A stretch of 64,000 nucleotides of DNA, from the NCBI GenBank assembly GCA_039030075.1, contig JBCCEW010000004.1, positions 25,826 through 89,825 of the forward strand, given 5' to 3'. The first letter of the stretch is position 1, and every line of letters starts with the position of its first letter. The notes beneath the pieces were generated by a model that saw only the letters and a program-made list of their open reading frames with translations, was not told where the DNA came from and ran no database searches. A program made the translations under genes and the position numbers. Below are positions 2,739 to 53,957 of the stretch, in pieces. The stretch comes from Myxococcota bacterium (lineage in GTDB: Bacteria; Myxococcota_A; UBA9160; SMWR01).

Positions 2739-3133
2739 GGGTTTCTCCTTGGGGTCAGGTACGAGACGTCATCATCAGAGATCGCGACGCACGCGGCTGT
2801 CAAGGAGTTGACAGCAGGTGATTTTCTCCATCTCCGCCGTCGGATACCGAAGACCGCGCCGGGGTTCGCCCATCTGTAGAGCCGTGTGCGGGATCGCGCC
2901 GTAGCGTCGGGTTGGCTTCTTCGAGGAAGCACCCTGCCCGAAACCGAGCCTGAAGATCTCGAAGCAGTCCAGGCGATCAAGACCGGCCCAGGCGAGTACG
3001 GACTCGTGGTGGTCGCCGACGGGCATCAGCCACAGAGGACCAGCACGCTCGACCAGGAAGACCTGGACTTGGTGGTCGCGTTGGAGCGCTCGCCCGACTC
3101 GAGTGACGACCCGGATCGCTGAACCCGCTTGCG

Positions 3134-3838
3134 CTAGGCATCGCCGTCGACGAACGTGCGCAGCGCCTCCCAATCGTGCACGGTCACGTAGCCGCGTCCG
3201 TGCTCGAGGAGTCCTTCCCGCTGCCAGCTCATCAGCATCTTGTTGACGCTGACCCGCGTGATCCCGGTTGCTTCTGCCAGCTCCTGCTGCGAGAGCCCAT
3301 GTCGAATGTGCTGTCCGCCCCCGTCGGTGGGCTCGCCGTAGCGCGTTGCCAGCACGTCGAGACGCCGTGCGAACCGCCGGGGCACGTCCATGAGGACGGC
3401 ATCCTCGACGAAGGCCGTCGTCTCGCGGATTCGCGCGCAGAGTACCTGGAGGAGCTGGACGGCGAGACCCGGGGATTCCTCGAGCATCGGCTTCACGTCG
3501 CGCCGTTGAAGAACCAGCGCCTCGGTATCGAGGTCCGCCGTGGCCGTTGCCGTGCGCGGCCCTCCGTCGAGGAGCGCGATTTCGCCATGCACCTCGCCGG
3601 GGTTGATGAGGTTGAGGATCACCTCGTTTCCCTCGGGAGAGAGTGACGAGATCACCACCCTGCCCGAGACCACGACCATCATCGATTCACCCGAGTCGTT
3701 GCGCCGATACAGGACGGTCCTCGCGGGATAGCGACGCGCGATCGCCACGCTCGCCAGCTTTTCGAGAACGTCGTCGGACAAGGAACGGAACAGGGAAGAT
3801 GAACGGATCCACTCGGCTTCGCTGCGAGGATTGGGCAT
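3134..3838 (-). CDS. Crp/Fnr family transcriptional regulator
   Basis: N-terminal cNMP-binding-like beta-roll (GEVHGEIALLDGGPRTATATA) and C-terminal HTH (SQQELAEATGITRVSVNKMLMSWQREGLL). Confidence 0.85.
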   Translation of the reverse strand: MPNPRSEAEWIRSSSLFRSLSDDVLEKLASVAIARRYPARTVLYRRNDSGESMMVVVSGRVVISSLSPEGNEVILNLINPGEVHGEIALLDGGPRTATATADLDTEALVLQRRDVKPMLEESPGLAVQLLQVLCARIRETTAFVEDAVLMDVPRRFARRLDVLATRYGEPTDGGGQHIRHGLSQQELAEATGITRVSVNKMLMSWQREGLLEHGRGYVTVHDWEALRTFVDGDA

Positions 3839-18724: not shown

Positions 18725-19024
18725 CGCGGTGCCGCGAAGCGGCGGTGTGTCACTGGAACTTGTTCTCGGGTGCGCCTAACACGGCCTGCGTCCCTCCGCT
18801 CGTGGAACACGTTTCAACCCTCGCGCCTCCGTCAATCCCGCCGGACGATTCCGCTTCTTTTCCTACACCGCTTGGCGTTAGGGTGGTGGCGTGCGTAAGT
18901 CGGGAAGACCGACGTGCGCCCGCGGTGGAGATCTCCTTCGACCACCCGAGCGTTTCGCTGGACGGCTGAACCACGTCGGTTCGGTCGTCATGGTCCTTCC
19001 CGCTCCCATCCTGGAGGGATCTTC

Positions 19025-20179
19025 ATGAAGTCCCAACGCTTACTCACCCGGTGCGCCCGAATCACCGCCTCCAGCTTCTTGCTGCTGGCATTGGCACTGC
19101 CCGCAACGGCTGTGATCGTCGAGTTCACCTCGACCTCGACGGCCGGCATTGGCGACGGCGGCAACCCCGCAACCATCGACGTGTCACCGAACGGGCTGCC
19201 GATCTGCAACATGGGCCTGCAGCCCCACCTGAACGCGTCGATTCCGGCGGCTGGTTTCGCCGATGTCGGCACGGTCGCGCCGCGTTCGCTGATGGCGGTG
19301 CGCCCGTTCAAGTACGGCCCGCCCGGTGCCACAACCGGCAACGCCACGATCATGGCGCGGCCCGGTGTCGCAGGCGTGAACGGCGCGGCGCAGTACGCGT
19401 CGAGCACCTGCAACATCCCGTTCCCGACGGCGTTCCTGCCGGCGATCCTCGCCGGTCGCACCCAGTTCTCGCGCTTCACCGGCCCGGCGGACAACGCCAT
19501 CACCACCACCACGACGGCGATGGGCAAGATGAACTTCATGGTCACCACCATGGGTCTCGAGGATCATCACCTCCGCGCAGGCGGTGGCCCCGGAAACTTC
19601 ACGTTCATGGTCCCCACGGTCCTGGGCACGCCGATGCAGACGATCATGGGCACCGCCGGCGCCAACACCTTCGGCGGTGGCTGGCGTGGGTCGGGCGGTG
19701 GCCGTGTGAACCTGGCCGTGAACGCGGCGCCGGGCGTCGTGATCTCGGGCTACTGGCTGACCGGCCCGCGCAAGGGCGGTCACAATGATCCGGTGAACAC
19801 CCAGCTCGTGACCCAGTCCGGTCTCTTCACCAATCTCGCCACGATGGGCGTGGCGCCGGTGACCCTGCGCGCCTGGAATGCACGGTTCACGACGGGCATG
19901 GTGAAGGCCGAGGACAACGGCGGTCAGTTCATCACGATCCGTACCCAGACCGGAGGCGACAACCGCACGGGCCCGTCGTCGAGCATGGGCACCCTGCTGC
20001 TCGTCACGCCGTTCACGGCGAGCCTGATCCCGTTCCTGGGTGGCGCCGCGAACCTGTACTTCGGTGGCACGGCGACGACCCGCTTCAACTTCCTGCCCGA
20101 GCCCGGCCCCACGGCCCTGCTCGCGGCGGGCGTCCTCGGCGTGATCGCCCTGCACCTGCTGGCGAGACGCCGCAAGTAG
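19025..20179 (+). CDS. PEP-CTERM protein, paralog family member P1 (subtype A)
   Basis: Signal peptide MKSQRLLTRCARITASSFLLLALALPATA; conserved N-terminal block VIVEF.STSTAGIGDGGNPATIDVSPNG.PICN.GLQPHLNAS; C-terminus FLPEPGPTALLAAGVLGVIALHLLARRRK is a PEP motif, TM helix and Arg cluster; own terminator. Confidence 0.85.
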   Translation: MKSQRLLTRCARITASSFLLLALALPATAVIVEFTSTSTAGIGDGGNPATIDVSPNGLPICNMGLQPHLNASIPAAGFADVGTVAPRSLMAVRPFKYGPPGATTGNATIMARPGVAGVNGAAQYASSTCNIPFPTAFLPAILAGRTQFSRFTGPADNAITTTTTAMGKMNFMVTTMGLEDHHLRAGGGPGNFTFMVPTVLGTPMQTIMGTAGANTFGGGWRGSGGGRVNLAVNAAPGVVISGYWLTGPRKGGHNDPVNTQLVTQSGLFTNLATMGVAPVTLRAWNARFTTGMVKAEDNGGQFITIRTQTGGDNRTGPSSSMGTLLLVTPFTASLIPFLGGAANLYFGGTATTRFNFLPEPGPTALLAAGVLGVIALHLLARRRK

Positions 20180-20216
20180 GGAGCGGAAACGCGTCCCTAT
20201 CGCGAGTGACCCAACC

Positions 20217-20255
20217 GAGGCCCGGGTGGCGATGCCGCCCGGGCCTCTTCTTTTC
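20217..20255 (+). terminator. intrinsic terminator-like hairpin after P1
   Basis: GAGGCCCGGG-tggcgatgccg-CCCGGGCCTC followed by TTCTTTTC. Confidence 0.6.
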
Positions 20256-20345
20256 GGGAATGCGCGAGACGCCGAAATGCGCCGTTGCTTCTCGGAGGGT
20301 GGGTCGGGGACAATGCGGGTCCCTCATCGCCCCACTGGAACCGCC

Positions 20346-21491
20346 ATGCAGACGCGTTTTCCAGCCCGCTGGCTTCCGCGCAAGTTCGCTTGCGTCGCTC
20401 TGTGGCTCGCCGTTGCCATCCCCGCGCAGGGGTTGGTGGTGGAGTTCGATGCCACCTACACGGCGGGCCTCGGTGATGGAGGGAACCCCGCCACGGTCGA
20501 CGTGGCGCCGAACGGAAGGCCCGCCTGCAATCAGGGCCTCCAACCGCATATCAACGCGTCGATCCCGGGTCACGGATTCGCCCAGCTCGGGATCACCGCG
20601 CCGCGCTCGTTGATGGCGGTGCGCCCCTTCCACTACGGCGAAGCCGGCCCCACGACCGGCAACGCGACGATCATGGCAAAGCCCGGAGTCGCGGGCGTGA
20701 ACGGTTTCGCGCGGTACACCTCGAGCACCTGCAGCGTCACCTTCCCAACGGCGTTCATTCCCAGGTTCTTCGACCTCACCCTGTTCGGGCGCTTCACGGC
20801 GCCCGCCCACAACGCCATCAGCACGACGACGACACCGATGGGCCGGATGAGTTTCATGGCCACGACCATGGGACTCGAATCCCATCACCTCCGCGCAGGC
20901 GGTGGCGGAGGCGATTTCAGCTTCATGATCCCGACGAGCCTCTCGTGGATGCAAACGATCATGGGAACTGCCGGCGCGAACACCTTCGGGGGCGGCTGGC
21001 GTGCCTCCGGTGGAGGACGCGAGCACTGGTGGTACCCGGTCGCACCGGGTCAGGTCGTCTCGGGCTACTGGCTGAGTGGTCCCTGGAAGTTCGGGCACAA
21101 CGAACCGGTGAATACCCAGATCGTGAGCGCATACGGGGTATTCACCAACCTGGGCACGATGGGCGTGTTCCCGGCGACCGCACGCTTCTGGAATGCCCGC
21201 TTCACGACGGGCATGGTGAAGGCCGAGGACCACGGCGGACAGTTCATCACGATCCGGACGCAGACCGGTGGCGACAACCGGACGGGCCCCCACTCGAGCA
21301 TGGGGACACTCCTCCTCGTCACGCCCTGGACGGCGAACGTCATCCCGTTCCTAGGAGTCACGACCCTCCATTTCGGCGGCACCGCGACCTTGCGCTTCGA
21401 TTTCCTGCCCGAGCCGGGGCCAACTGTGCTCCTCGCACTCGGCGTGGGCGCCGTGCTGGTACTCCATCTCCTCTCGCGGCGCGGTCACTAG
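20346..21491 (+). CDS. PEP-CTERM protein, paralog P2 (subtype B)
   Basis: Signal peptide; LVVEFDATYTAGLGDGGNPATVDVAPNGRPACNQGLQPH...; C-terminal FLPEPGPTVLLALGVGAVLVLHLLSRRGH. Confidence 0.85.
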   Translation: MQTRFPARWLPRKFACVALWLAVAIPAQGLVVEFDATYTAGLGDGGNPATVDVAPNGRPACNQGLQPHINASIPGHGFAQLGITAPRSLMAVRPFHYGEAGPTTGNATIMAKPGVAGVNGFARYTSSTCSVTFPTAFIPRFFDLTLFGRFTAPAHNAISTTTTPMGRMSFMATTMGLESHHLRAGGGGGDFSFMIPTSLSWMQTIMGTAGANTFGGGWRASGGGREHWWYPVAPGQVVSGYWLSGPWKFGHNEPVNTQIVSAYGVFTNLGTMGVFPATARFWNARFTTGMVKAEDHGGQFITIRTQTGGDNRTGPHSSMGTLLLVTPWTANVIPFLGVTTLHFGGTATLRFDFLPEPGPTVLLALGVGAVLVLHLLSRRGH

Positions 21492-21494
21492 ACG

Positions 21495-22646
21495 ATGGGT
21501 GCGCACAGACGATCCGGGTTTGGAGTCGTTGCCGTCATCGCCGCCGCGCTCCTTCTCCTCGATCTCGCTCCTGCGTCAGCACTGGTCGTCGAATTCGACG
21601 CTACCTACACCGCCGGCCTCGGCGACGGCGGGAACCCGGCCACGATCGACGTGAGGCCGAATGGTCGGCCCATCTGCAACAAACGCTTGCAGCCACACCT
21701 CAACGCATCGATCCCAGGCCATGGGTTCGCAGCGCTGGGGGCGACCGCGCCGCGATCGCTCATGGCAGTCCGACCCTTCCACTACGGAGAAGCCGGGCCG
21801 ACCACAGGCAACGCCACGATCATGGCGAAGCCGGGCATCGCCGGATCCAACGGCTTCGCGAGGTACACGACGGGGACGTGCACCCTCACCTTCTCGCCGT
21901 TCATTCCCCTGTGGAGGTACTCCGACTTTTTTGGGAGGTTCACGGCCCCAGCCAACCACGCCATCGCAACGACGACCACGTCGATGGGGCGCATGAGATT
22001 CATGGCCACGACCATGGGCCTGGAGTCGCACCATCTGCGGGCAGGCGGTGGACCGGGAAGCTTCAGCTTCATGGTCCCAGCAACCCTCTCGCCGATGCAG
22101 ACGATCATGGGGACGGCCGGCGTGAACACCTTCGGCGGCGGCTGGCGCGCCTCGGGTGGCGGACGTCGCAGCGACGCGATCAACGCTGCTCCGGGAGTCG
22201 TGGTTTCGGGCTACTGGCTCACCGGCCCCTGGAAGTTCGGGCACAACGAACCCGTGAACACCCAGCTCGTGACCCAGTTCGGCGTCTTCACGAATCTGGC
22301 CACGATGGGCACGGCGCAGGTGACGGTTCGGGTGTGGAACGCCCGGTTCACGACGGGCATGGTCAAGGCCGAGGACAACGGAGGGCAGTTCATCACGGTC
22401 CGCACCCAGACCGGTGGCGACAACCGCACCGGACCCCACTCGAGCATGGGGACGCTTCTGCTCGTCACGCCCTGGACCGCGAATGTGATCCCGTACCTCG
22501 GAGGCGCCGCCAACCTCTACTTCGGAGGCACCGCGACGCTGCGCTTCGAATTCCTCCCCGAGCCCGGCCCGACGGCGCTTTTCGCGCTGGGTGTCGTGGC
22601 GGTGCTGACGCTCCATCGAGCATTGCGAGGACGCGGTCGGTCATGA
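21495..22646 (+). CDS. PEP-CTERM protein, paralog P3
   Basis: Same conserved N- and C-terminal blocks; 3-nt spacing from P2. Confidence 0.85.
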   Translation: MGAHRRSGFGVVAVIAAALLLLDLAPASALVVEFDATYTAGLGDGGNPATIDVRPNGRPICNKRLQPHLNASIPGHGFAALGATAPRSLMAVRPFHYGEAGPTTGNATIMAKPGIAGSNGFARYTTGTCTLTFSPFIPLWRYSDFFGRFTAPANHAIATTTTSMGRMRFMATTMGLESHHLRAGGGPGSFSFMVPATLSPMQTIMGTAGVNTFGGGWRASGGGRRSDAINAAPGVVVSGYWLTGPWKFGHNEPVNTQLVTQFGVFTNLATMGTAQVTVRVWNARFTTGMVKAEDNGGQFITVRTQTGGDNRTGPHSSMGTLLLVTPWTANVIPYLGGAANLYFGGTATLRFEFLPEPGPTALFALGVVAVLTLHRALRGRGRS

Positions 22647-23809
22647 ACGGACTCCTCGTCCGGAGAACCGCGGCCCTCCTCGCTGCCCTCACCACGCTCG
22701 TGTGGCCCCTTTACAGTTGCGCGCTGGTCGTCGAGTTCGACGCCACGTACACGGCGGGACAGGGCGATGGAGGTAATCCCGCAACCTTCGAGAATGCGCC
22801 GAATGGGCGTCCTATCTGCAACAAGGGGCTCCAAGCGCACCTCAATGCATCGATCCCAGGTCACGGCTTCGCCGAGTTGGGTGGCACGGCACCGCGTTCG
22901 CTGATGGCCGTGCGCCCGTTCCGCTACGGGGAGGCCGGCCCCACCACCGGTAACGCCACCGTCATGGCCAAACCCGGTATCGCGGGTGCGAACGGCTTCG
23001 CTCGCTACACGACGCACACCTGCGTCGTGTCGTTTCCGCCACCGTTCCTGCCTGCGATCTTTCCGGACCGAACCCTGTCTGGACGCTTCACAGCTCCGGC
23101 AGACAACGCGATCACGACCACGACTACGACGATGGGCCGGATGAGCTTCATGGTCACCACGATGGGTCTCGAATCCCACCACCTCCGCGCCAGCGGCGGC
23201 CCTGGCGACTTCAGCTTCATGGTGCCCGCATCCCTCGAGCCGAACAACGCCTGGAGTGGCAGCCCGATGCAGGGAATCCAAGGGGAGGCGGGTCCCAACA
23301 GCTTCGGTGGGGGTTGGAGGGCGTCCGGGTTCCATCGCGACAATCTGCAGTACCTCTTCGGGCCGGTGGTCTTCTCCGGCTACTGGGTGAGCGGCCCCTG
23401 GAAGTTCGGGCACAACGAGCCGGTAAATACCCAGGTGGTGAGCCAGTTCGCGGTCATGACGAACCTCGCCACCATGGGCACCTTCCCTGCAACCGTGCGT
23501 GTCTGGAACGCGCGCTTCACCACCGGGATGGTCAAGGCCCTGGACAACGGAGGGCAGTTCATCACGATTCGCACCCAGACCGGTGGCGACAACCGCACCG
23601 GCCCGCACTCGAGCATGGGAACCCTCCTGCTGGTCACACCGTGGACGGCCAGCGTGACGCCTTGGCTGGGAGGCGCGGCCAACCTCTACTTTGGCGGCAC
23701 CGCGACGCTGCGCTTCGAGTTCCTCCCCGAGTCCGGCCCGACCGCGCTATTCGCGCTCGGAGCCATGACGGTGCTAGCCCTCCACTTTTTCTCGCGGCGA
23801 GATCGCTAG
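22643..23809 (+). CDS. PEP-CTERM protein, paralog P4
   Basis: Start MNGLLVRRTAALLAALTTLVWPLYSCA overlaps P3 stop (ATGA); conserved blocks; PEP-CTERM FLPESGPTALFALGAMTVLALHFFSRRDR. Confidence 0.85.
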   Translation: MNGLLVRRTAALLAALTTLVWPLYSCALVVEFDATYTAGQGDGGNPATFENAPNGRPICNKGLQAHLNASIPGHGFAELGGTAPRSLMAVRPFRYGEAGPTTGNATVMAKPGIAGANGFARYTTHTCVVSFPPPFLPAIFPDRTLSGRFTAPADNAITTTTTTMGRMSFMVTTMGLESHHLRASGGPGDFSFMVPASLEPNNAWSGSPMQGIQGEAGPNSFGGGWRASGFHRDNLQYLFGPVVFSGYWVSGPWKFGHNEPVNTQVVSQFAVMTNLATMGTFPATVRVWNARFTTGMVKALDNGGQFITIRTQTGGDNRTGPHSSMGTLLLVTPWTASVTPWLGGAANLYFGGTATLRFEFLPESGPTALFALGAMTVLALHFFSRRDR

Positions 23810-23812
23810 ACG

Positions 23813-24985
23813 ATGGGCGCACGAGAACGAGCGAAGCTCGGTGGCGTCGTGGCTTCCCTACTCCTCCTGGCGGGGTTCGACTCCGCGTCGGCGCTGGTCG
23901 TCGAGTTCGACGCCACCTACTCCGCCGGCCTCGGCGATGGTGGAAACCCTGCCACGATCGACGTGCAGCCGAACGGCCGTCCCGCCTGCAATAGGGGCCT
24001 CCAGCCGCATCTCAATGCGTCGATTCCGGGCCACGGATTCGCCGAGCTGGGTGCGACAGCGCCGCGCTCGCTCATGGCCGTCCGCCCCTTCCACTACGGC
24101 GAAGCCGGGCCCACGACCGGCAACGCGACGATCATGGCGAAGCCCGGCGTCGCGGGCGTGAACGGCTTCGCGCGCTACTCCACCGCGACCTGCATCCTCA
24201 GCCTGCCTCCGAACTGCTGCCCGATCCTGGTCATCGACCACACCTGGATCGGTCGTTTCACCGCACCCGCCGACAACGCCATCACGACCTCGACGACGAC
24301 GATGGGACAGATGAGTTTCATGGTGACGACGATGGGGCTCGAATCGCACCACCTGCGGGTGGGTGGAGGCCCCGGCGACTTCACGTTCATGGTTCCGACC
24401 TCGCTGGCGCCGGATCCCATGGGCCTGAGCCCAATACAGAGCTTGATGGGCGCAGCAGGGCCCCACACCTTCGGCGGCGGTTGGCGCGCCTCCGGCGGCG
24501 GCCGTGAACGGTTCGTGCTCAATGCGGGCGTTGGCGTGGTGCTCTCGGGATCCTTCACAAGCGGCCCGTGGAAGTTCGGTCACAACGAGCTGGTGAACAC
24601 GCAGCTCGTGAGCCAGGTCGGATCTTTCACCAACCTGGCGACGATGGGAGTCGCCCCGGTCACCCTGCGCATCTGGAACGCCCGCTTCACCACGGGCGTG
24701 GTGAAGGCCGAGGACAACGGCGGGCAGTTCATCACCATCCGCACCCAGACGGGGGGCGACAACCGGACCGGCCCCCAATCGAGCATGGGCACGCTGCTCC
24801 TCGTCACACCCTGGACCGCGAGCGTCATCCCCTTCATCGGGGGCGCCGCCAACCTCTACTTCGGCGGCACCGCCAACCTTCGCTTCGAGTTCCTCCCCGA
24901 GCCCGGCCCGACGGCGCTCCTCGCACTCGGAGTCGCCCTGGTGCTGGGGCTCCACAGGGTCGCCCGAAGAGAAAGAGACCGATGA
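23813..24985 (+). CDS. PEP-CTERM protein, paralog P5
   Basis: Conserved blocks; C-terminal FLPEPGPTALLALGVALVLGLHRVARRERDR. Confidence 0.85.
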   Translation: MGARERAKLGGVVASLLLLAGFDSASALVVEFDATYSAGLGDGGNPATIDVQPNGRPACNRGLQPHLNASIPGHGFAELGATAPRSLMAVRPFHYGEAGPTTGNATIMAKPGVAGVNGFARYSTATCILSLPPNCCPILVIDHTWIGRFTAPADNAITTSTTTMGQMSFMVTTMGLESHHLRVGGGPGDFTFMVPTSLAPDPMGLSPIQSLMGAAGPHTFGGGWRASGGGRERFVLNAGVGVVLSGSFTSGPWKFGHNELVNTQLVSQVGSFTNLATMGVAPVTLRIWNARFTTGVVKAEDNGGQFITIRTQTGGDNRTGPQSSMGTLLLVTPWTASVIPFIGGAANLYFGGTANLRFEFLPEPGPTALLALGVALVLGLHRVARRERDR

Positions 24986-26154
24986 GACGAACGCTGCTCC
25001 AGGCTCGAAGCGCGCGTGCCGCGATCGTGATCGGACTCTACCTTCTCGCGTGGTCCCTTCCTGCGTCCGCCCTGGTCGTGGAGTTCGATGCCACCTATTC
25101 CGCCGGCCTCGGCGACGGTGGAAACCCAGCCACGCTCGATGTGGGGGCGAATGGACGGCCGATCTGCAACAAGGGCCTCCAGCCGCACCTCAACGCTTCG
25201 GTCCCGGGTCACGGCTTTGCCGAGTTGGGTGCGACGGCACCGCGGTCGCTGATGGCCGTCCGCCCCTTCCACTACGGCGTAGCAGGGCCCACCACCGGCA
25301 ACGCAACGATCATGGCAAAACCCGGGATCGCCGGCCTGAACGGCTTCGCCCGCTACACGATGGCCACCTGCGAGGTGACGGTGCCGCCCCACGGCCTCCC
25401 CGTTCCCCAGGTGGACCACACCTGGATCCAACGCTTCACCGCTCCCGCGAATCACGCGATCACGACCACCACGACGCCTATGGGCCGGCGCAGCTTCATG
25501 GCGAACCTCGGGATCCTGGAGTCACATCACCTGCGCGCCGAGGGCGGCCCGGGCACCTTCAGCTTCGTGGTCCCGGAGTCCCTGGAGCCCGCCCCCTGGA
25601 CCGGCAGCCCGATGCAGGGAATCCAAGGGGCCGCGGGCCCGAACACCTTCGGTGGCGGCTGGCGCGCCTCCGGCGGAGGCCGCCAGCAGCAGCAGGTCAA
25701 TGCGGCGCCCGGCGTGGTGATCTCCGGCTATTGGTTGAGCGGTCCGTGGAAGTTCGGCCACAACGAACCCGTGAACACCGAGCTCGTGAGTGCGTACGGC
25801 GTGTTCACCAACCTGGCCACGATGGGCACCATGCCCTTGACCCTCCGCGTCTGGAATGCCCGATTCACGACCGGCGTGGTGAAGGCCGAGGACAACGGCG
25901 GGCAGTTCATCACCATCCGCACCCAGACGGGCGGCGACAACCGGACGGGCCCGCATTCGAGCATGGGAACGCTGCTGCTCGTCACCCCGTGGACGGCGAG
26001 CGTCATTCCGTTCCTAGGAGTCACGACCCTCCACTTCGGCGGCACCGCCACGCTGCGCTTCGAGTTCCTGCCCGAGCCCGAGCCGACGGCGCTATTCGCG
26101 CTCGGAGCCATGACGGTGCTGGCGCTCCACTTCGTCTCGCGGCGAGATCGCTAG
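24982..26154 (+). CDS. PEP-CTERM protein, paralog P6
   Basis: Start MRRTLLQARSARAAIVIGLYLLAWSLPASA overlaps P5 stop (ATGA); conserved blocks; PEP-CTERM. Confidence 0.85.
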   Translation: MRRTLLQARSARAAIVIGLYLLAWSLPASALVVEFDATYSAGLGDGGNPATLDVGANGRPICNKGLQPHLNASVPGHGFAELGATAPRSLMAVRPFHYGVAGPTTGNATIMAKPGIAGLNGFARYTMATCEVTVPPHGLPVPQVDHTWIQRFTAPANHAITTTTTPMGRRSFMANLGILESHHLRAEGGPGTFSFVVPESLEPAPWTGSPMQGIQGAAGPNTFGGGWRASGGGRQQQQVNAAPGVVISGYWLSGPWKFGHNEPVNTELVSAYGVFTNLATMGTMPLTLRVWNARFTTGVVKAEDNGGQFITIRTQTGGDNRTGPHSSMGTLLLVTPWTASVIPFLGVTTLHFGGTATLRFEFLPEPEPTALFALGAMTVLALHFVSRRDR

Positions 26155-26157
26155 ACG

Positions 26158-27354
26158 ATGGGCGCACGAGAACGAGCGAAGTTCGGTGGCGTCGTGGCTT
26201 CCCTACTCCTCCTGGCGGGGTTCGACTCCGCGTCGGCTCTGGTCGTCGAATTCGACGCTACCTACACCGCTGGCCTCGGCGACGGCGGGAACCCCGCCAC
26301 GATCGACGTGGGGCTGAACGGTCGGCCCGTCTGCAACAAGGGCCTGCAACCGCATCTCAATGCGTCGGTCCCGGGCCACGGCTTCGCCGAGATCGGGACC
26401 ACCGCACCGCGGTCACTGATGGACGTGCGACCCTTCCGCTACGGGGAGGCGGGTCCCACCACCGGCAACGCAACGATCATGGCGAAACCCGGGATCGCGG
26501 GCATGAACGGCTTCGCCCGGTACACGCCGGGCACCTGCGTCATCCCGTTCCCCACGCCATTTCTACCGGCGATCTTCCCGAAGCAGACCCCGTCCGGACG
26601 ATTCACGGCGCCCGCGGACAACGCCCTGACGACCACGACGACGCCGATGGGCCGAATGAGCTTCATGGCCACGACCATGGGCCTCGAGTCACACCATCTG
26701 CGCGCGGGCGGTGGTGGTGGCAACTTCAGCTTCATGCTCCCGGCGTCGTTGGCGCCCATCAACCCTTGGAGCGGTAGCCCCATGCAGGGCATCCGAGGTA
26801 CCGCTGGCCCGAATTCCTTTGGAGGCGGCTGGCGGGCATCGGGTGCACACCGCCACAACCTGCAGATCTTCGCGGCCCCGGGGGTCGTCTTCTCGGGGTA
26901 TTGGGCGACCGGCCCCTGGAAGTTCGGTCACAACGAGCCGGTGAACACGCAGGTCGTCAGCCATCTCGCGATCCTCACGAACCTCGCAACCATGGGAACG
27001 CTTCAAGCCACCGCGCGCGTGTGGAATGCGCGTTTCACCACCGGCATGGTGAAGGCCGAAGACAACGGCGGGCAGTTCATCACGGTTCGGACCCAGACCG
27101 GTGGTGACAATCGGACCGGGCCGCACTCGAGCATGGGATCGTTGCTGCTCGTCACTCCCTGGACGGCCAGCGTGGTCCCATGGCTCTTCGGCGCCGCCAA
27201 CCTCCACTTCGGCGGCACTGCAACGCTGCGCTTCGAGTTCCTGCCCGAGCCGGGCCCGACAGCCCTCTTCGTCGCCGGCACGGTCGCGATCTCCGTCCTT
27301 CACGCGTTCTTCCGTCTGCGGGCGACGCGCCGATCAGCGCGACGCGGAGAGTAG
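26158..27354 (+). CDS. PEP-CTERM protein, paralog P7
   Basis: Conserved blocks; C-terminal FLPEPGPTALFVAGTVAISVLHAFFRLRATRRSARRGE. Confidence 0.85.
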   Translation: MGARERAKFGGVVASLLLLAGFDSASALVVEFDATYTAGLGDGGNPATIDVGLNGRPVCNKGLQPHLNASVPGHGFAEIGTTAPRSLMDVRPFRYGEAGPTTGNATIMAKPGIAGMNGFARYTPGTCVIPFPTPFLPAIFPKQTPSGRFTAPADNALTTTTTPMGRMSFMATTMGLESHHLRAGGGGGNFSFMLPASLAPINPWSGSPMQGIRGTAGPNSFGGGWRASGAHRHNLQIFAAPGVVFSGYWATGPWKFGHNEPVNTQVVSHLAILTNLATMGTLQATARVWNARFTTGMVKAEDNGGQFITVRTQTGGDNRTGPHSSMGSLLLVTPWTASVVPWLFGAANLHFGGTATLRFEFLPEPGPTALFVAGTVAISVLHAFFRLRATRRSARRGE

Positions 27355-27556
27355 AAGAGCGGCAACCCTTCCTAGCGCCGCCCGCTGACCCCCAGCGAAT
27401 CCCCAGGACGCCCCGACACTGCGCGGGGTTAGTGTGGGCGCGTGTCGCTGGGGGGTGCCCGGCCCGCTCTTCGAAGGCCCGGGAGCCCAGCGCTCCTGGA
27501 CGCGAGGCGCGCCTCACCGGCGCGCTCGTCCCGCTTGCGCCACAGGAGGGAATCGC

Positions 27557-28711
27557 ATGAAGACAGAACGAACCTTCACGCACCGTGCCGTCGTGGCAGC
27601 CTTCACGATCGCCCTGATCACACTCGGCCTGCCGGCCACCGCAGCGATCGTGGAGTTCAATGCCACCTACACCGCCGGGCTCGGAGACGGCGGCAACCCG
27701 GCGACGATCGACAACTCGCCGAACGGCCTACCGATCTGCAACCAGGGTCTACAGCCCCACCTCAACGCGTCCATCACGGGCAACGGCTTCGCCGAGCTCG
27801 GTGCAGTCGGGCCACGCTCACTCATGGCGGTGCGCCCGTTCAAGTACGGGGACGCCGGCATGACCACGGGCAACGTCACCATCATGGCGCGGCCCGGGGA
27901 GCCGGGCGTCAACGGCTTCCCGCAGTACGCCTCGAACACCTGCGTCGTTCCGTTCCCCGCGGCCTTCTTGCCCGCGATCCTGGCCGGTCGGACTCAGCTG
28001 TCTCGCTTCACCGGACCGGCGGACGATGCAATCACGACGACCGTGACCCCAATGGGCAAGATGAACTTCATGGTCACCAACATGGGACTCGAATCCCACC
28101 ACCTCCGCGCGGGCGGGGGTCCCGGAAACTTCAACTTCAAGGTGGACCCCGCCCTCTCGCCGATGCAGACGATCATGGGCACCGCCGGCGCCAACACCTT
28201 CGGTGGCGGCTGGCGCGCTTCGGGCGGAGGGCGCGTGAACCTCGCGGTCAACGCGGCACCCGGTGTCGTGATCTCCGGCTTCTGGCTCACCGGCCCCCGG
28301 AAGCTCGGTCACAACGAAGCGGTGAATACCCAGCTCGTCACCCAGACGGGCCTGTTCACGAACCTGGCGACGATGGGCGTCGCGCCCGTGACGCTGCGCG
28401 TCTGGAACGCACGCTTCACGACGGGCATGGTGAAGGCCGAGGACAACGGCGGCCAGTTCATCACGATCCGCAGCCAGACGGGCAACGACAACCGGACGGG
28501 CCCGTCTTCCAGCATGGGAACGCTCTTGCTGGTGACGCCCTGGACGGCGAGTCTGATCCCGTTCCTCGGCGGTGCGGCCAACCTCTACTTCGGCGGGACC
28601 GGCACCGTGCGCTTCGAGTTCGTGCCCGAGCCAGGGCCGACGACCCTGCTCGCGGCGGGCGTCCTCGGCGTGATCGCGCTGCACCTGGGCGTGCGCCGCC
28701 GCCGCCGCTAG
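27557..28711 (+). CDS. PEP-CTERM protein, paralog P8 (subtype A, most similar to P1)
   Basis: RBS AGGAGGG upstream of MKTERTFTHR...; AIVEFNATYTAGLGDGGNPATIDNSPNGLPICNQGLQPH...; C-terminal FVPEPGPTTLLAAGVLGVIALHLGVRRRRR. Confidence 0.85.
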   Translation: MKTERTFTHRAVVAAFTIALITLGLPATAAIVEFNATYTAGLGDGGNPATIDNSPNGLPICNQGLQPHLNASITGNGFAELGAVGPRSLMAVRPFKYGDAGMTTGNVTIMARPGEPGVNGFPQYASNTCVVPFPAAFLPAILAGRTQLSRFTGPADDAITTTVTPMGKMNFMVTNMGLESHHLRAGGGPGNFNFKVDPALSPMQTIMGTAGANTFGGGWRASGGGRVNLAVNAAPGVVISGFWLTGPRKLGHNEAVNTQLVTQTGLFTNLATMGVAPVTLRVWNARFTTGMVKAEDNGGQFITIRSQTGNDNRTGPSSSMGTLLLVTPWTASLIPFLGGAANLYFGGTGTVRFEFVPEPGPTTLLAAGVLGVIALHLGVRRRRR

Positions 28712-29441: not shown

Positions 29442-29517
29442 GCCGCATTGGCTCAGTGGCTAGAGCATCCGCTTGTCGAGCGGAAGAGCGCGGGTTCGAA
29501 TCCCGCATGCGGCGCCA
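29442..29517 (+). tRNA. tRNA-Asp (GTC)
   Basis: Cloverleaf: acceptor GCCGCAT/ATGCGGC, D GCTC-AGTGGCTA-GAGC, anticodon loop TTGTCGA, T-arm GCGGG-TTCGAAT-CCCGC, encoded CCA. Confidence 0.85.
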
Positions 29518-29523
29518 GTTCAC

Positions 29524-29600
29524 CAGGGTGTAGCTCAGTCGGGAAGAGCTCTTTCTTCGGAAGGAAGCGGTCGTTGGTTCGAATCCAACCACCCTGACCA
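29524..29600 (+). tRNA. tRNA-Pro (CGG)
   Basis: Acceptor CAGGGTG/CACCCTG, anticodon loop TTCGGAA, canonical T-loop TTCGAAT, CCA. Confidence 0.85.
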
Positions 29601-29601
29601 G

Positions 29602-29678
29602 GCCGGGGTAGCCCAATCGGCAGAGGCGACGGTCTTAGACACCGTTCAGTGTGGGTTCGAATCCCACCTCCGGTACCA
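29602..29678 (+). tRNA. non-canonical tRNA with anticodon TAG (Leu-decoding): class-II-like 3-bp D-stem but short 5-nt variable loop
   Basis: Acceptor GCCGGGG/CTCCGGT (2 G.U), D-arm GCC-CAATCGGCAGA-GGC resembling tRNA-Leu, anticodon stem ACGGT/ACCGT with loop CTTAGAC, variable TCAGT, T-arm GTGGG-TTCGAAT-CCCAC, A73, CCA. Confidence 0.6.
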
Positions 29679-29684
29679 GTTTTC

Positions 29685-29760
29685 ATCGGCGTAGCTCAGA
29701 GGACAGAGCACCGCTCTGCGAAGGCGGAGGCCGCAGGTTCGAGTCCTGCCGCCGATACCA
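29685..29760 (+). tRNA. tRNA-Arg (GCG; G34 where bacterial Arg tRNAs normally carry A34)
   Basis: Acceptor ATCGGCG/CGCCGAT, anticodon loop CTGCGAA, T-arm GCAGG-TTCGAGT-CCTGC, CCA. Confidence 0.7.
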
Positions 29761-29785
29761 GGATCCCAACAGAGGAGACGTTCGT

Positions 29786-29874
29786 TCCGTGGTGGCGGAA
29801 TTGGCAGACGCACCGGGTTGTTACCCCGGCGCCCGACACCGGGCTTGCAGGTTCGAGGCCTGCCCACGGAGCCA
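29786..29874 (+). tRNA. non-canonical class-II tRNA (long variable arm, Leu-like D-arm) with anticodon GTT (Asn-decoding)
   Basis: Acceptor TCCGTGG/CCACGGA, D-arm GCG-GAATTGGCAGA-CGC (near-identical to E. coli tRNA-Leu D-arm), anticodon stem CCGGG/CCCGG with loop TTGTTAC, 17-nt variable arm with GCCCG-ACAC-CGGGC stem-loop, T-arm GCAGG-TTCGAGG-CCTGC, G73, CCA. Confidence 0.6.
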
Positions 29875-29875
29875 G

Positions 29876-29950
29876 GCCGACATAGCTCATCGAGCAGAGC
29901 ACCTGTTTCGTAACCAGGAGAGCGGGGTGCAAGTCCTCGTGTCGGCTCCA
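29876..29950 (+). tRNA. tRNA-Thr (CGT), T-loop TGCAAGT (G55)
   Basis: Acceptor GCCGACA/TGTCGGC, anticodon loop TTCGTAA, D-loop lacks GG, T-arm CGGGG-TGCAAGT-CCTCG, CCA. Confidence 0.7.
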
Positions 29951-29955
29951 CAACA

Positions 29956-30030
29956 CGCGCGGTAGCTCAGGAAGCAGAGCGCCCGGTTGAAGCCCGGGAG
30001 GCGCTGGTGCGACTCCAGCCTGCGCGACCA
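29956..30030 (+). tRNA. tRNA-Phe (GAA), T-loop TGCGACT (G55)
   Basis: Acceptor CGCGCGG/CTGCGCG, anticodon loop TTGAAGC, T-arm GCTGG-TGCGACT-CCAGC, A73, CCA. Confidence 0.75.
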
Positions 30031-30062
30031 GATTCGATCGATTGGAGAAGTCGTTTGAAACA

Positions 30063-30129
30063 TGCGGAGAGACTCGGAGTCGACCCGGCGTCATGAGCCG
30101 GGGGAGCGGGTTCGACTCCCGCCTCCGCG
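30063..30129 (+). pseudogene. degenerate tRNA-Met-like element (anticodon CAT) with truncated D-arm, no encoded CCA
   Basis: Anticodon arm CCGGC-GTCATGA-GCCGG, T-arm GCGGG-TTCGACT-CCCGC, acceptor TGCGGAG/CTCCGCG, but only 15 nt between acceptor and anticodon stem (tight GACTC-G-GAGTC hairpin instead of a D-arm). Confidence 0.4.
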
Positions 30130-30134
30130 AGTTC

Positions 30135-30209
30135 GTCCACGTGGTCCAGCAGCACGGATTCCGGGTTCTCACCCCGGAGACGCGGGTGCAAACCCCGCCG
30201 TGGGCACCA
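30135..30209 (+). tRNA. tRNA-Glu (CTC), T-loop TGCAAAC (G55)
   Basis: Acceptor GTCCACG/CGTGGGC, D-arm GTCC-AGCAGCAC-GGAT, anticodon loop TTCTCAC, T-arm GCGGG-TGCAAAC-CCCGC, CCA. Confidence 0.75.
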
Positions 30210-30213
30210 GTTC

Positions 30214-30289
30214 TGGCGAGTAGCTCAGAGGAAAGAGCGCCGGTCTGATATGCCGGAGGTCGGGGGTGCGAGGCCCTCCTCGCCAACCA
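30214..30289 (+). tRNA. tRNA-Ile (GAT), T-loop TGCGAGG (G55)
   Basis: Acceptor TGGCGAG/CTCGCCA, anticodon loop CTGATAT, T-arm GGGGG-TGCGAGG-CCCTC, CCA. Confidence 0.75.
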
Positions 30290-30315
30290 GGATTCGAAAC
30301 AGAGGAGAACACTTC

Positions 30316-30390
30316 ACCGTCGTAGCTCAACGAATAGAGCGCCGCGCTTCGGACGCGGAGGATGGGGGTTTGAATCCCCCCGACGGTTCC
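30316..30390 (+). tRNA. tRNA-Arg-like (TCG) with D-loop lacking GG and T-loop TTTGAAT (T56)
   Basis: Acceptor ACCGTCG/CGACGGT perfect 7 bp, D-arm GCTC-AACGAATA-GAGC, anticodon stem CCGCG/CGCGG with loop CTTCGGA, CCA. Confidence 0.55.
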
Positions 30391-30396
30391 ATGCCA

Positions 30397-30469
30397 GGCG
30401 GACGTAGCTCAGGTGGCAGAGCGCCGGCGTGCCACGCCGGAGGCCGCGGGATCGAAGCCCGCCGTCCGC
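30397..30469 (+). tRNA. tRNA-Gly (GCC), T-loop ATCGAAG (A54), CCA not encoded
   Basis: Acceptor GCGGACG/CGTCCGC, D GCTC-AGGTGGCA-GAGC, anticodon loop GTGCCAC, T-arm GCGGG-ATCGAAG-CCCGC, U73. Confidence 0.7.
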
Positions 30470-30471
30470 TC

Positions 30472-30547
30472 CTGGGGGCAGGCGCAATCGGAAGCGCATC
30501 CGGATCTGACCCGGAAGGTTCGGGGTTCGACTCCCCGGCCCCCATCC
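30472..30547 (+). tRNA. tRNA-Gln (CTG)
   Basis: Acceptor TGGGGGC/GCCCCCA, D GCGC-AATCGGAA-GCGC, anticodon stem TCCGG/CCGGA with loop ATCTGAC, T-arm CGGGG-TTCGACT-CCCCG, CCA. Confidence 0.8.
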
Positions 30548-30556
30548 AAAGACGCA

Positions 30557-30629
30557 CAGGGTGCCCGTCGGCTGCGGCCCGGGGACTCCAAATCCCGCGG
30601 AGGAGGGATCGACACCTTCGCACCCTGCC
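30557..30629 (+). tRNA. tRNA-Trp (CCA) with shortened atypical D-arm and A54 T-loop
   Basis: Acceptor AGGGTGC/GCACCCT (like E. coli tRNA-Trp), anticodon loop CTCCAAA identical to E. coli Trp, T-arm GAGGG-ATCGACA-CCTTC, G73 CCA; only 14 nt for the D-arm region. Confidence 0.6.
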
Positions 30630-30636
30630 AAGAACA

Positions 30637-30713
30637 CGGTGGTCGTAGCTCAACGGGCGAGAGTGCCGCTCTGTGACTGCGGAGACCCGGGTTCGAGTCC
30701 CGGCGACCGCCCC
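30637..30713 (+). tRNA. tRNA-His (GTG) with G-1
   Basis: Extra 5' G(-1) opposite C73, acceptor GTGGTCG/CGACCGC, anticodon loop CTGTGAC, T-arm CCGGG-TTCGAGT-CCCGG, CCA. Confidence 0.8.
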
Positions 30714-30728
30714 AACCCGAAAGACACG

Positions 30729-30803
30729 CTGAGGCGTAGCTCGAAGGCAGAGCAACCGATTCTTAATCGGTGGGGTGTGGGTTCGAGTCCCACCGCCTCA
30801 ACC
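30729..30803 (+). tRNA. tRNA-Lys (CTT)
   Basis: Acceptor TGAGGCG/CGCCTCA, D GCTC-GAAGGCA-GAGC, anticodon stem ACCGA/TCGGT with loop TTCTTAA, T-arm GTGGG-TTCGAGT-CCCAC, CCA. Confidence 0.85.
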
Positions 30804-30954
30804 AACCACACCGCGCGATGCGCGCGAGAAGGAGACACGAACGAGGTCAGCGTGGGCGGATCGTCGCCAGCGGAGCCGGTTCTGCATGCCGGCCTGGCGC
30901 GCGGGAGCTGAGAATCGCTCTGGCGCGTACCCGCGACGGACGCAGCGCTTGCCG

Positions 30955-31030
30955 GCATGGATAGCTCCAGTGGAAGAGCAACGGTTTGTCACACCGTGGG
31001 TCGTCGGTTCGAATCCGACTCCAAGCGCCA
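30955..31030 (+). tRNA. tRNA-Asp (GTC), second copy
   Basis: Acceptor GCATGGA/TCCAAGC (one A-A mismatch), D GCTC-CAGTGGAA-GAGC, anticodon stem ACGGT/ACCGT with loop TTGTCAC, T-arm GTCGG-TTCGAAT-CCGAC, CCA. Confidence 0.7.
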
Positions 31031-31426: not shown

Positions 31427-32575
31427 ATGCGCAAGCTGTGGAAGCTCTACACGAAGTGGGAGATCGCGGATCACGAGCGCGGTCTGCTCTTTCAGCGCGA
31501 CAACTTCGTCCGCGTGCTGATGCCGGGTACGCACCGGCTCGCGGACCCGTTGGGCCGCATGCACGTGGACAAGTACGACCTCACGAATCCGGTGTTCGAG
31601 CACCCGATCGATGAGTTCCTGGTCAAGACGCACCCGGAGCTCGCGGATCACCTGACGGTGGTCGAGCTGGGTGACCGTGAGGTGGGTCTCGCTCACGTGG
31701 ACGGCAAGCTCGCCGACGTGCTGGCGCCGGCGACGCGGACGATCTTCTGGAAGGGCCTGCACAAGGTGCGGGTCCACGTCCAGGACGTGTCGGACGACTT
31801 CGCCGTGCCGCGCGAGATCGTGGGTCTGCTAGGTCGAGCGCTACCGCTGACGCGGCTGGCGAAGGCGGTCGAGCTGACGCACGTCTCGGACGGCCACGTG
31901 GGCCTGCTGCTGGTGGACGGCGTGCTCGAGCGCGTGCTCGAGCCGGGCGCGCACGCCTTCTGGAAGTGGGGCCGTGGGCTCCAGGTGCGACACCTGGACC
32001 TGCGACTCCAGAGCCTGGAGGTGTCGGGCCAGGAGATCCTGTCGAAGGACAAGGTCAGCCTGCGTCTCAACCTGACGGCGGGCTTCCGGGTCACTGACCC
32101 GGAGCGCGCCTTCCACGCGGTGCCGGACTTCGCGGACTTCCTGTACAAGGAGCTGCAGTTCGCTCTGCGTGAGGCGGTGGGTACACAGACCCTGGACGAG
32201 ATCCTCGCCAGCAAGGACGAGCTCGGCCAGTCGATCCACCGACAGGTCCGAGCGCGTGCGACGGAGGTCGGCCTCGAGGTGTCGAGCGTCGGTGTGAAGG
32301 ACATCATCCTCCCGGGTGAGATGAAGACACTGCTCAACCAGGTGGTGGAGGCGGAGAAGCAGGCGCAGGCCAACCTGATCCGCCGCCGGGAGGAGACCGC
32401 GGCCACGCGGTCGCTTCACAACACGGCGAAGATGCTCGAGCGAAGCCCGACGCTGCTCCGGCTCAAGGAGCTGGAGGCGCTGGAGAAGGTCACCGAGCGG
32501 ATCGACAAGCTCACCGTCTTCGGTGGTCTCGACGGCGTGCTTCACCAGTTGGTGAAGCTGGGCGACGGCGACTGA
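31427..32575 (+). CDS. SPFH/band-7 (slipin-like) domain protein, apparently cytoplasmic, with duplicated N-terminal about 60-aa repeat
   Basis: RBS GGAGGTCGAGAAC-ATG; band-7 core ...VSLRLNLTAGFRVTDPERAFHAV.DFADFLYKELQFALREAVGTQTLDEILASKDELGQSIHRQVRARATEVGLEVSSVGVKDIILPGEM... followed by coiled coil; no N-terminal TM helix. Confidence 0.75.
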   Translation: MRKLWKLYTKWEIADHERGLLFQRDNFVRVLMPGTHRLADPLGRMHVDKYDLTNPVFEHPIDEFLVKTHPELADHLTVVELGDREVGLAHVDGKLADVLAPATRTIFWKGLHKVRVHVQDVSDDFAVPREIVGLLGRALPLTRLAKAVELTHVSDGHVGLLLVDGVLERVLEPGAHAFWKWGRGLQVRHLDLRLQSLEVSGQEILSKDKVSLRLNLTAGFRVTDPERAFHAVPDFADFLYKELQFALREAVGTQTLDEILASKDELGQSIHRQVRARATEVGLEVSSVGVKDIILPGEMKTLLNQVVEAEKQAQANLIRRREETAATRSLHNTAKMLERSPTLLRLKELEALEKVTERIDKLTVFGGLDGVLHQLVKLGDGD

Positions 32576-53916: not shown

Positions 53917-53957
53917 TGGGGTTCCCCTCAGTGTTGCGCGCACTGTCTATATTAAAT

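Follow-up and report, generated by a model that had tools for sequence, protein, structure and literature searches.

Protein sorting by the PEP-CTERM/exosortase system is widespread in environmental bacteria. To our knowledge, almost none of its cargo proteins has a known structure or function, and the step by which they cross the outer membrane is undefined. As a class, PEP-CTERM substrates (TIGR02595, PF07589; Haft 2006, PMC1569441) carry a signal peptide and, at the extreme C-terminus, a PEP motif that runs directly into a membrane helix and then an Arg cluster. Their mature parts are rich in Thr and Asn and poor in charged residues and Cys, they expand as lineage-specific paralogs, and they lack homology to enzymes. 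Most of their genes are reported to stand as operons of one gene, in many cases with a sigma-54 element (PMC1569441). Among individual members, the flocculation protein PepA of Zoogloea and Aquincola is smaller than 29 kDa and RpoN-dependent; its gene adjoins prsT, and the protein tethers exopolysaccharide to the cells (PMC9850573). ZepA of Anabaena, from the THxN family (NF038125), is a small secreted PEP-CTERM exoprotein involved in zinc handling (PMC10957091). Within the Myxococcota, the TonB-dependent transporter Oar is required for secretion of PopC in Myxococcus xanthus (PMC6434023).

We analysed eight tandem genes, termed P1 to P8, in a window comprising the whole 64,000-nt stretch of Myxococcota DNA under study. 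The encoded proteins share the protein features given above with PEP-CTERM substrates generally, and differ from them in tails that fall below the model thresholds and take a family-specific form, PEPGPT...LH...RRR. The explanation that we lean towards, with slightly better than even confidence, is that the array encodes exported, exosortase-sorted, all-beta paralogs of approximately 35 kDa, linked to a conserved gene module and acting as surface variants or as a hetero-oligomer. The features of the array are as follows.

18862..18893, + strand: block upstream of P1, common to the P8 upstream region; 132-163 nt before the P1 ATG
19025..20179, + strand: P1, 384 aa; P1/P8 subtype; predicted monocistronic; ATG preceded by GGAGGG; signal peptide ...PATA; Cys61 and Cys129; tail PEPGPTALLAAGVLGVIALHLLARRRK; identical to NCBI AAF430_05345
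20217..20257, + strand: terminator-like element 3' of P1; hairpin and T tract, resembling an intrinsic terminator
20346..21491, + strand: P2, 381 aa; opens the predicted P2-P7 operon; identical to AAF430_05350
21495..22646, + strand: P3, 383 aa; starts 3 nt past the P2 stop; copy used for the AlphaFold2 model
22643..23809, + strand: P4, 388 aa; ATGA overlap with P3; PES in the tail; identical to AAF430_05365
23813..24985, + strand: P5, 390 aa; starts 3 nt past the P4 stop
24982..26154, + strand: P6, 390 aa; ATGA overlap with P5; identical to AAF430_05375
26158..27354, + strand: P7, 398 aa; starts 3 nt past the P6 stop; closes the predicted operon
27413..27444, + strand: block upstream of P8, common to the P1 upstream region; 113-144 nt before the P8 ATG
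27557..28711, + strand: P8, 384 aa; P1/P8 subtype; own 5' region; AGGAGGG ribosome-binding site; identical to AAF430_05385

The original prediction, made from the DNA alone, described eight same-strand genes with P1 standing apart behind its own terminator, P2 to P7 coupled and P8 following a gap of about 200 nt. This layout was borne out by measurement. All eight ORFs lie on the + strand between 19025 and 28711, with products of 381-398 aa. P1 is followed by a strong terminator-like hairpin (20217-20247; 12 of the 14 stem pairs G-C, loop of 3 nt) and then by TTCTTTTC, the sequence 3' of the stem within 20217..20257 reading TTCTTTTCGG. The P2/P3, P4/P5 and P6/P7 junctions are 3-nt gaps (TAGACGATG), and ATGA overlaps occur at P3/P4 and P5/P6; the intergenic gaps measure 166 nt between P1 and P2 and 202 nt between P7 and P8. 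The start of P2 is less certain because further in-frame ATGs occur at 20313 and 20277. It was also noted that the NCBI annotation of P3 covers its last 214 aa only (AAF430_05360). From this arrangement, P1 and P8 would be separate transcription units and P2 to P7 a translationally coupled operon. Unlike most PEP-CTERM genes, the array thus appears to combine a six-gene coupled operon with two single genes, and no sigma-54 element was found: the promoter search performed at chance level, and the regions upstream of P1, P2 and P8 contained no site. A sigma-70 scan found nothing. The blocks upstream of P1 and P8 match at 24 of 32 bases, where 50 shuffles yielded at most 21, and may represent a shared promoter or regulatory element.

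The signal peptide and the conserved N- and C-terminal blocks that had been described are present in the copies. On inspection, each of the sequences shows a basic n-region followed by a hydrophobic core, and its AxA-type site immediately precedes [IV]VEF (8/8); two Cys residues are invariant in all eight. The mature regions contain few charged residues and are composed of 14.6% Gly, 11.5% Thr, 5.6% Asn, 5.9% K+R and 0.7% Cys, compared to a window background of 4.8% Thr, 1.9% Asn and 11.5% K+R; PEP-CTERM proteins are reported to have such a composition (PMC1569441). The mature domain had been called unassignable, and it remained so, with no match among Pfam, NCBIfam or PDB sequences. Every public relative of the family is named "hypothetical protein". 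Scans with family patterns returned one locus from genome contigs and one from metagenome contigs; the superfamily alignment, termed A2, comprises 39 members and is too diverse for patterns to be derived from it. The mature domain thus belongs to no described family, and the family is new to the databases while falling within a known class of surface proteins.

Family members were found to adjoin a conserved gene module in seven Myxococcota lineages. The module consists of a TPR protein, a membrane-anchored sulfatase-like enzyme of the alkaline-phosphatase superfamily, a TonB-dependent receptor and alpha-solenoid anchored proteins. It also includes a small protein with a C-terminus that, as read by eye from its residues, ends in aromatic positions like those of outer-membrane beta-barrel proteins. 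The module adjoins family members at four loci of relatives (L002, L005, L006 and L007) and, in the same MAG as the array, at the dispersed paralog AAF430_16365 (L011). Two further regions from distant Myxococcota (L012/13 and L014/15), reached through the sulfatase-like gene alone, also carry the module, with family members that score 266 and 238 bits. No module genes are adjacent to the eight-gene array itself. A functional link to the DUF3604 gene upstream of the array was considered weak and dropped; the DUF3604 gene at L002 is 36% identical and lies 6 kb away.

The best match of the module's TPR protein was by far PrsT (TIGR02917; 184.6 bits, E 2.4e-54); this is below the cut-off of 312.2, and TPR proteins cross-match readily, so the protein is PrsT-like by similarity and cannot be named PrsT. 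The family therefore resembles PepA in that its gene sits beside a PrsT-like TPR gene, a position seen in relatives as well as for the dispersed paralog in this genome, and in its presumed structural role outside the cell. In contrast to PepA, its neighbours are the sulfatase-like enzyme and the TonB-dependent receptor and not exopolysaccharide synthesis genes, and no similarity extends beyond the tail, the PepA model NF033554 matching one of the 39 A2 members at E 0.001. Neither NF033554 nor NF038125 matched any of the eight array proteins. In the distant superfamily proteins examined, NF038125 matches are confined to the tail, at model positions 219-244 of 246; in A2, this model matches 11 of 39 members.

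A gene neighbourhood with TonB-dependent transporters is a trait shared with ZepA, whose surroundings also hold other PEP-CTERM genes. On one alternative account, the array proteins would be secreted or surface ligand-binding proteins that pass a substrate to the module's receptor, as hemophores or ZepA do, and the array would form a repertoire of binding specificities. Unlike ZepA, the family lacks both a His-rich metal site and a Zur/FUR context, is twice as long and occurs in many copies. We regard the ligand-binding account as rather unlikely.

The exosortase-sorted surface proteins that we favour depend on the assignment of the C-terminus, which the original prediction had called a textbook PEP-CTERM signal. 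The motif, a membrane helix without a spacer and an Arg cluster occupy the extreme C-terminus in seven of the eight copies, with PES in P4 and PEPEP in P6 as variants. PF07589 reported P8 alone (13.9 bits, below its gathering score of 20.7), and none of the eight tails was reported by TIGR02595. Since the tails score under the curated thresholds, "textbook" is the wrong word. Membership of the class itself stood, because homologous tails in A2 match the models at the same position (E<=1) in 25/39 members for TIGR02595 and 23/39 for PF07589; one relative (P0053) exceeds the PF07589 cut-off at 21.2 bits. The array tails are thus, by alignment, divergent PEP-CTERM signals homologous to the recognised tails of distant relatives. 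In addition, a beta-helix/LamG protein with no relation to the family, encoded at 37227-39665 on the minus strand of the window, scores 16.3 against the TIGR02595 cut-off of 16, which indicates that the genome uses this sorting class. Myxosortase substrates were also considered and rejected. The defining mark of MYXO-CTERM is an invariant Cys within the signature motif that precedes the membrane helix (10.1101/2023.06.07.544157), and no Cys occurs in any of the eight tails; TIGR03901 scored P8 only, at 14.2 bits against a cut-off of 20.

A different reading of the same helix is that it serves as a plain, uncleaved anchor and that the proteins stay periplasmic on the inner membrane, the PEP-like motif being incidental. 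The sub-threshold scores of all eight tails and the loss of the third motif residue in P4 speak for it, as does the exosortase search, which found none within the window, as originally stated, or in any other locus retrieved. However, P355 is invariant and E356 and P357 nearly so across A2, the superfamily, whose tails are mostly recognised by PEP-CTERM models, conserves the motif position, helix and Arg cluster, and a different protein of the window exceeds a PEP-CTERM cut-off. The composition of the mature regions is likewise typical of extracellular proteins. Permanent periplasmic anchoring appears distinctly unlikely to us.

Structure prediction of one member gave a confident model. With the 39-sequence superfamily alignment, AlphaFold2 returned an all-beta structure for P3 at pLDDT 79.9; a run on 21 close sequences reached pLDDT 39 and was discarded. 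Fold searches with the P3 model matched no solved fold and provided no functional clue. The mature part comprises two modules, an N-terminal one of approximately 175 aa, which has one conserved Cys pair and is specific to the array family, and a C-terminal one of approximately 150 aa, modelled as an eight-strand up-and-down beta domain. That the all-beta proteins are themselves porin-like or OmpW-like outer-membrane barrels is highly improbable and was dismissed on TM-scores and strand polarity, as the model gave no closed barrel that could be superposed on known ones, with hydrophobic strand faces turned to the lipid.

The C-terminal beta domain was found to recur immediately before PEP-CTERM tails in more than 100 protein clusters. 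With tails removed, an HMM of the domain reached 20 bits or more for 131 of 145 distant proteins; no shuffled control did so. Other proteins carry the domain joined to FG-GAP/TSP3, FGE-sulfatase and Cys-rich repeats. This recurrence directly before the tail suggests a generic stalk or anchoring module.

We then assessed how the copies are related. Pairwise protein identity ranges from 66 to 81%, with P1 and P8 the closest pair (81%), and the proposed division into a P1/P8 and a P2-P7 subtype proved real by both identity and tree. Three paralogs dispersed over the rest of the genome group with P1 and P8. At least 12 family copies were counted in the genome, eight of them in the array; the ancestral copy was probably kept at the module while the family expanded. 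The bootstraps of deep clades were set aside as unreliable, since clades had been matched on a rooted tree. The copies have diverged to a dS of approximately 0.9, with third-codon identity of 50-60%, and purifying selection acts on each of them (dN/dS 0.20). Because the copies are this old and individually constrained, the dosage-driven function that had been suggested for the array is unlikely to have arisen through amplification. The proposed phylogenetic choice between recent duplication and concerted evolution favoured neither: recent amplification was dropped on the dS value, and concerted evolution is confined to short conversion tracts such as the one between P5 and P7, whose first ~30 codons are 91-99% identical at the DNA level. 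The alternating junction types hinted at duplication of a two-gene unit, which found no support in the tree, where P4 groups with P7 and P5 with P6. The array is a mosaic. Variation clusters in three segments, where dN/dS rises to 0.5-0.7; the six P2-P7 variants differ mainly there on a conserved scaffold, and a surface-variant set or a hetero-oligomer is therefore suggested.

The proposed path for these surface proteins runs as follows. Their sequence features point to Sec export through the N-terminal signal peptide. The PEP motif, membrane helix and Arg cluster would then hold the protein in the inner membrane. Cleavage at the PEP motif would fall to an exosortase whose gene would lie outside the window, after which the mature protein would move to the cell surface or the extracellular matrix. 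The family would represent the PEP-CTERM component of a module conserved across the Myxococcota. The P2-P7 operon should yield six diverged variants together, and its most likely product would be a set of co-produced surface variants or a hetero-oligomeric surface structure working with the module.

A bolder form of this proposal, to which we assign a low probability, makes the module a dedicated trans-envelope machine that modifies the PEP-CTERM beta-protein and either transports it through the outer membrane or assembles it at that site. The receptor would act as export conduit in the manner of Oar with PopC, the beta domain before the tail as a recognition or anchoring module, and P2 to P7 as six subunits of a hetero-oligomer. 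Oar offers a Myxococcota precedent for protein export across the outer membrane, and the module likewise has a TonB-dependent receptor; unlike the family, PopC has no PEP-CTERM tail, and the export role of the receptor is hypothetical, drawn by analogy. The enzyme in such a machine belongs to the alkaline-phosphatase superfamily with a Thr nucleophile, and the alpha-solenoid anchored proteins number two. If this form were true, it would provide the first defined outer-membrane route for PEP-CTERM proteins.

New here are one PEP-CTERM cargo family and a beta domain of ~150 aa that directly precedes the sorting tail. The linkage to a TonB-dependent receptor module in seven lineages provides a concrete genetic handle on the processing and surface placement of this cargo, and the array would be an unusually clear case of long-maintained, co-translated surface-protein paralogs.

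The eight paralogous genes P1-P8 (381-398 aa) were originally predicted to lie on one strand at 19025-28711, and this was confirmed, with plus-strand open reading frames and junctions as described. Start codons were set by the position of a conserved [IV]VEF block together with ribosome-binding sites.

19025-20179, plus strand, P1
20217-20257, hairpin with a 14-bp G+C-rich stem and a T tract, 3' of P1
20346-21491, plus strand, P2
21495-22646, plus strand, P3 (383-aa frame)
22643-23809, plus strand, P4
23813-24985, plus strand, P5
24982-26154, plus strand, P6
26158-27354, plus strand, P7
27557-28711, plus strand, P8

A 3-nt spacing (TAGACGATG) occurs at the P2/P3, P4/P5, and P6/P7 junctions and an ATGA overlap at P3/P4 and P5/P6, and P2-P7 form a coupled six-gene operon. 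P8 follows P7 after 202 nt with its own AGGAGGG site, and the upstream regions of P1 and P8 have a 32-nt block in common (24/32 bases identical vs at most 21 in shuffles). PEP-CTERM genes typically stand as operons of one gene, in Proteobacteria often bearing a sigma-54 element (PMC1569441), whereas the array includes this coupled operon and no sigma-54 motif was found for it. It was noted that the public annotation retains only the last 214 aa of P3 (AAF430_05360), though its full frame is open and conserved throughout, and that it begins P5 and P7 12 codons late, so that their signal peptides lose the basic n-region and the 3-nt coupling disappears. The G+C content is approximately 68% across the whole window and composition is unbroken at the array; the numerous antisense ORFs there are a product of high G+C content.

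P1-P8 all begin with a signal peptide, followed by a mature part (325-335 aa, two invariant Cys) and a C-terminal tail: PEP (PES in P4), approximately 20 hydrophobic residues that include a conserved LH, then an Arg cluster. The proteins are composed of 14.6% Gly, 11.5% Thr, and 5.6% Asn, with few charged residues. The tail had been called a textbook PEP-CTERM signal, which fails on the P4 motif and on curated thresholds: models reported it for P8 only, below cut-off (PF07589, 13.9 bits vs 20.7; MYXO-CTERM, 14.2 vs 20). MYXO-CTERM and its relatives require a Cys (10.1101/2023.06.07.544157), and that assignment was rejected because the tails have none. Among 39 diverse superfamily members, however, the same C-terminal position is called PEP-CTERM in 25 by TIGR02595 and in 23 by PF07589, so the window tails are best read, from sequence, as divergent PEP-CTERM signals. 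Architecture, composition, and tail homology thus fit placement of P1-P8 in the PEP-CTERM class, although the curated score thresholds are failed.

The genome probably uses PEP-CTERM sorting, since an unrelated 812-aa right-handed beta-helix and LamG protein (37227-39665, minus strand; ending ...FLPEPGGVLPLVLGGAFLVTLRRRRRA) exceeds the TIGR02595 cut-off (16.3 vs 16). An NHL/SBBP beta-propeller protein (8475-9656, plus strand) resembles the scytonemin PEP-CTERM protein ScyF below cut-off (64.7 bits); its tail lacks PEP, is closest to IPTL-CTERM (17.6 vs 20.5), and may represent a second sorting-signal flavour. At locus L004 (1053-2899), the start of AAF430_22725 (387 aa), which is the MAG's most divergent paralog, overlaps as ATGA with an upstream 228-aa gene that has no family match, yet carries a PEP-type tail (...DVLPEPDGFGALTAGAAGLVALARRRRG).

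That the mature domain fits no described family was borne out: Pfam and NCBIfam gave zero matches on the mature region of any of the eight copies or of the 39 superfamily members, and a profile search of all PDB sequences found nothing. A profile run exhaustively against 1.84 billion cluster representatives picked up 254 clusters with E<=1e-3, 59 of them with E<=1e-10; most of the 254 match only profile positions 170-380. After tail removal, separate HMMs were built for the C-terminal domain (P3 residues 205-352) and the N-terminal module (residues 30-204). The former scored at least 20 bits in 131/145 distant proteins and in no shuffled controls, and the latter in only 12 of the 145. Other proteins combine this C-terminal domain with FG-GAP/TSP3 repeats, an FGE-sulfatase domain, or Cys-rich repeats, and in them it always directly precedes a PEP-CTERM tail. 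From these tail-free scores and this constant place, it is a real, undescribed "pre-tail" domain. AlphaFold2 with the 39-sequence alignment (pLDDT 79.9, pTM 0.79) predicted an all-beta fold between two terminal helices, the C-terminal domain being modeled as eight consecutive antiparallel strands.

The P1-P8 proteins match AAF430_05345-05385 exactly; these belong to a Myxococcota MAG in which four further paralogs occupy other contigs (AAF430_16365, _19390, _09435, and _22725). Very few close relatives exist (25 of 5.8 billion proteins; a single locus in 185,579 species genomes and one further in JGI metagenomes); all are named "hypothetical protein" and occur as one or two copies without translational coupling. 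By neighbor joining, all 12 copies in the MAG cluster, split into a P2-P7 clade and a second that unites P1 and P8 with the dispersed paralogs; family growth here is a lineage-specific expansion. The copies share 66-81% protein identity and only 50-60% at third codon positions, with a mature-region dS of approximately 0.9 and dN/dS of 0.20 (Nei-Gojobori), the latter rising from 0.08-0.16 in conserved blocks to 0.5-0.7 within three variable stretches (alignment columns 126-153, 201-222, and 237-247). Local conversion tracts lie across the P4/P5 and P6/P7 junctions: P5 and P7 share 91-99% DNA identity over their opening ~30 codons (23813-23900 vs 26158-26245), and the P4 and P6 tails share ~89% (23700-23809 vs 26045-26154), compared with ~74% overall. 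Junction types alternate as if a two-gene unit had once duplicated; the gene tree pattern differs. Because dS is high, dN/dS low, and conversion limited to short tracts, the copies are old and individually maintained. Dosage through recent amplification was therefore not borne out, and of concerted evolution and recent duplication neither applies, the array not being homogenized.

In four relatives' loci (L002, L005, L006, and L007), the family gene divergently adjoins a conserved module comprising an ~800-aa TPR protein (best model PrsT, TIGR02917; 184.6 bits, below the 312.2 cut-off), a membrane-anchored sulfatase-family protein, a TonB-dependent receptor, and 2-3 unannotated proteins. Searching with the sulfatase-like protein, we found the MAG ortholog (P0191; 70% identity) on a 141,719-bp contig with AAF430_16365. 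A Logan contig (L011) runs from a paralog N-terminus, its 84 residues at the contig end identical to AAF430_16365, divergently into the TPR, sulfatase-like, receptor, and 343-aa protein genes. Two distant Myxococcota loci, reached only via the sulfatase-like gene, carry a superfamily member beside the TPR gene.

L002: 5834-7210, sulfatase-like gene; 929-3201, anchored solenoid coding region
L005: 5767-7140, sulfatase-like gene; 747-2971, anchored solenoid coding region
L006: 5382-6758, sulfatase-like gene
L007: 5793-7169, sulfatase-like gene
L011: 3082-4461, sulfatase-like gene; 7076-8107, anchored solenoid gene
L012/13: superfamily member, 353 aa, 266 bits; L012 14057-15289, anchored solenoid gene
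L014/15: superfamily member, 452 aa, 238 bits; L014 14159-15427, anchored solenoid gene

Linkage of module and family thus holds in seven lineages; the array of eight genes arose as a derived expansion and lies apart from the ancestral locus. The sulfatase-like protein (>3,700 relatives, many from Myxococcota) is anchored by a single N-terminal membrane helix; it has no CxPxR formylglycine motif and carries an invariant Thr (SSWTKSSMASLWT) at the expected nucleophile position; it is probably not a sulfatase and appears to fit better a hydrolase/transferase of the phosphoethanolamine-transferase type. Downstream of the receptor, the membrane-anchored proteins that carry no annotation are paralogs of one another, built of alpha-solenoid repeats with a recurring W..DP..A..W motif, and match designed PPR proteins at E 1e-21. 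By inspection of C-termini, the block's final protein terminates in aromatic residues, like outer-membrane beta-barrel proteins.

Around the array, the window contains neither exosortase nor EPS genes, as had been stated for the exosortase. A DUF3604 gene directly precedes P1 (16769-18724, plus strand; 777 bits to PF12228). Relatives also carry one (L001 6183-8165; L002 17162-19144), ~4.6 kb downstream of the family pair and only 36% identical to that of the window, and the link may be coincidental. Divergent from this gene and the array is a 966-aa protein gene (13633-16533, minus strand) with a response-regulator receiver, DUF4388, a ~300-aa Glu/Arg/Ala-rich coiled coil, and C-terminal TPRs. 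Sixteen head-to-tail tRNA genes occupy 1.6 kb (29442-31030, plus strand), the first 730 nt after P8; Rfam confirms 15, leaving a 70-nt "Met" at 30061-30130 unconfirmed. Oddities among them are two tRNA-Asp(gtc) genes, a "Leu(tag)" of 77 nt that lacks a long variable arm, and an "Asn(gtt)" of 89 nt that has one, and the SPFH/Band-7 (31427-32575) and PcfJ-like (32685-34160) genes that follow hint at a mobile or atypical array. Farther along, two minus-strand genes (50374-52131 and 52546-53946) encode a 585-aa protein and, directly upstream of it, a sigma-70-family protein; the 585-aa protein starts with a tubulin/FtsZ GTPase domain (PF00091, E 7e-16) and continues into a long C-terminal part of low complexity.

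Export signals, a PEP-CTERM-type tail, operon structure, and purifying selection are shown for the array proteins, as is module linkage for the family, and a role as a surface component working with the module is favored. By analogy with the PEP-CTERM system (PMC1569441; 10.1101/2023.06.07.544157), the tail would retain the proteins in the inner membrane, an exosortase would cleave them, and they would then reach the surface or matrix. The first rival is a protein that captures a ligand for the module's TonB-dependent receptor, for which ZepA (PMC10957091) offers a comparison; the array proteins are unrelated in sequence to both ZepA and PepA. A second is a periplasmic protein anchored uncleaved in the inner membrane. 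An outer-membrane barrel is the weakest. It is also unlikely that the receptor exports or assembles family cargo in the manner of Oar, which serves PopC in Myxococcus (PMC6434023). Under the favored surface-component role, P2-P7 would supply a co-translated set of six variants acting with the module. The functional claim for the family is modest; the family and its domain are real and undescribed, inside a known kind of system, and the conserved module is the most useful lead.
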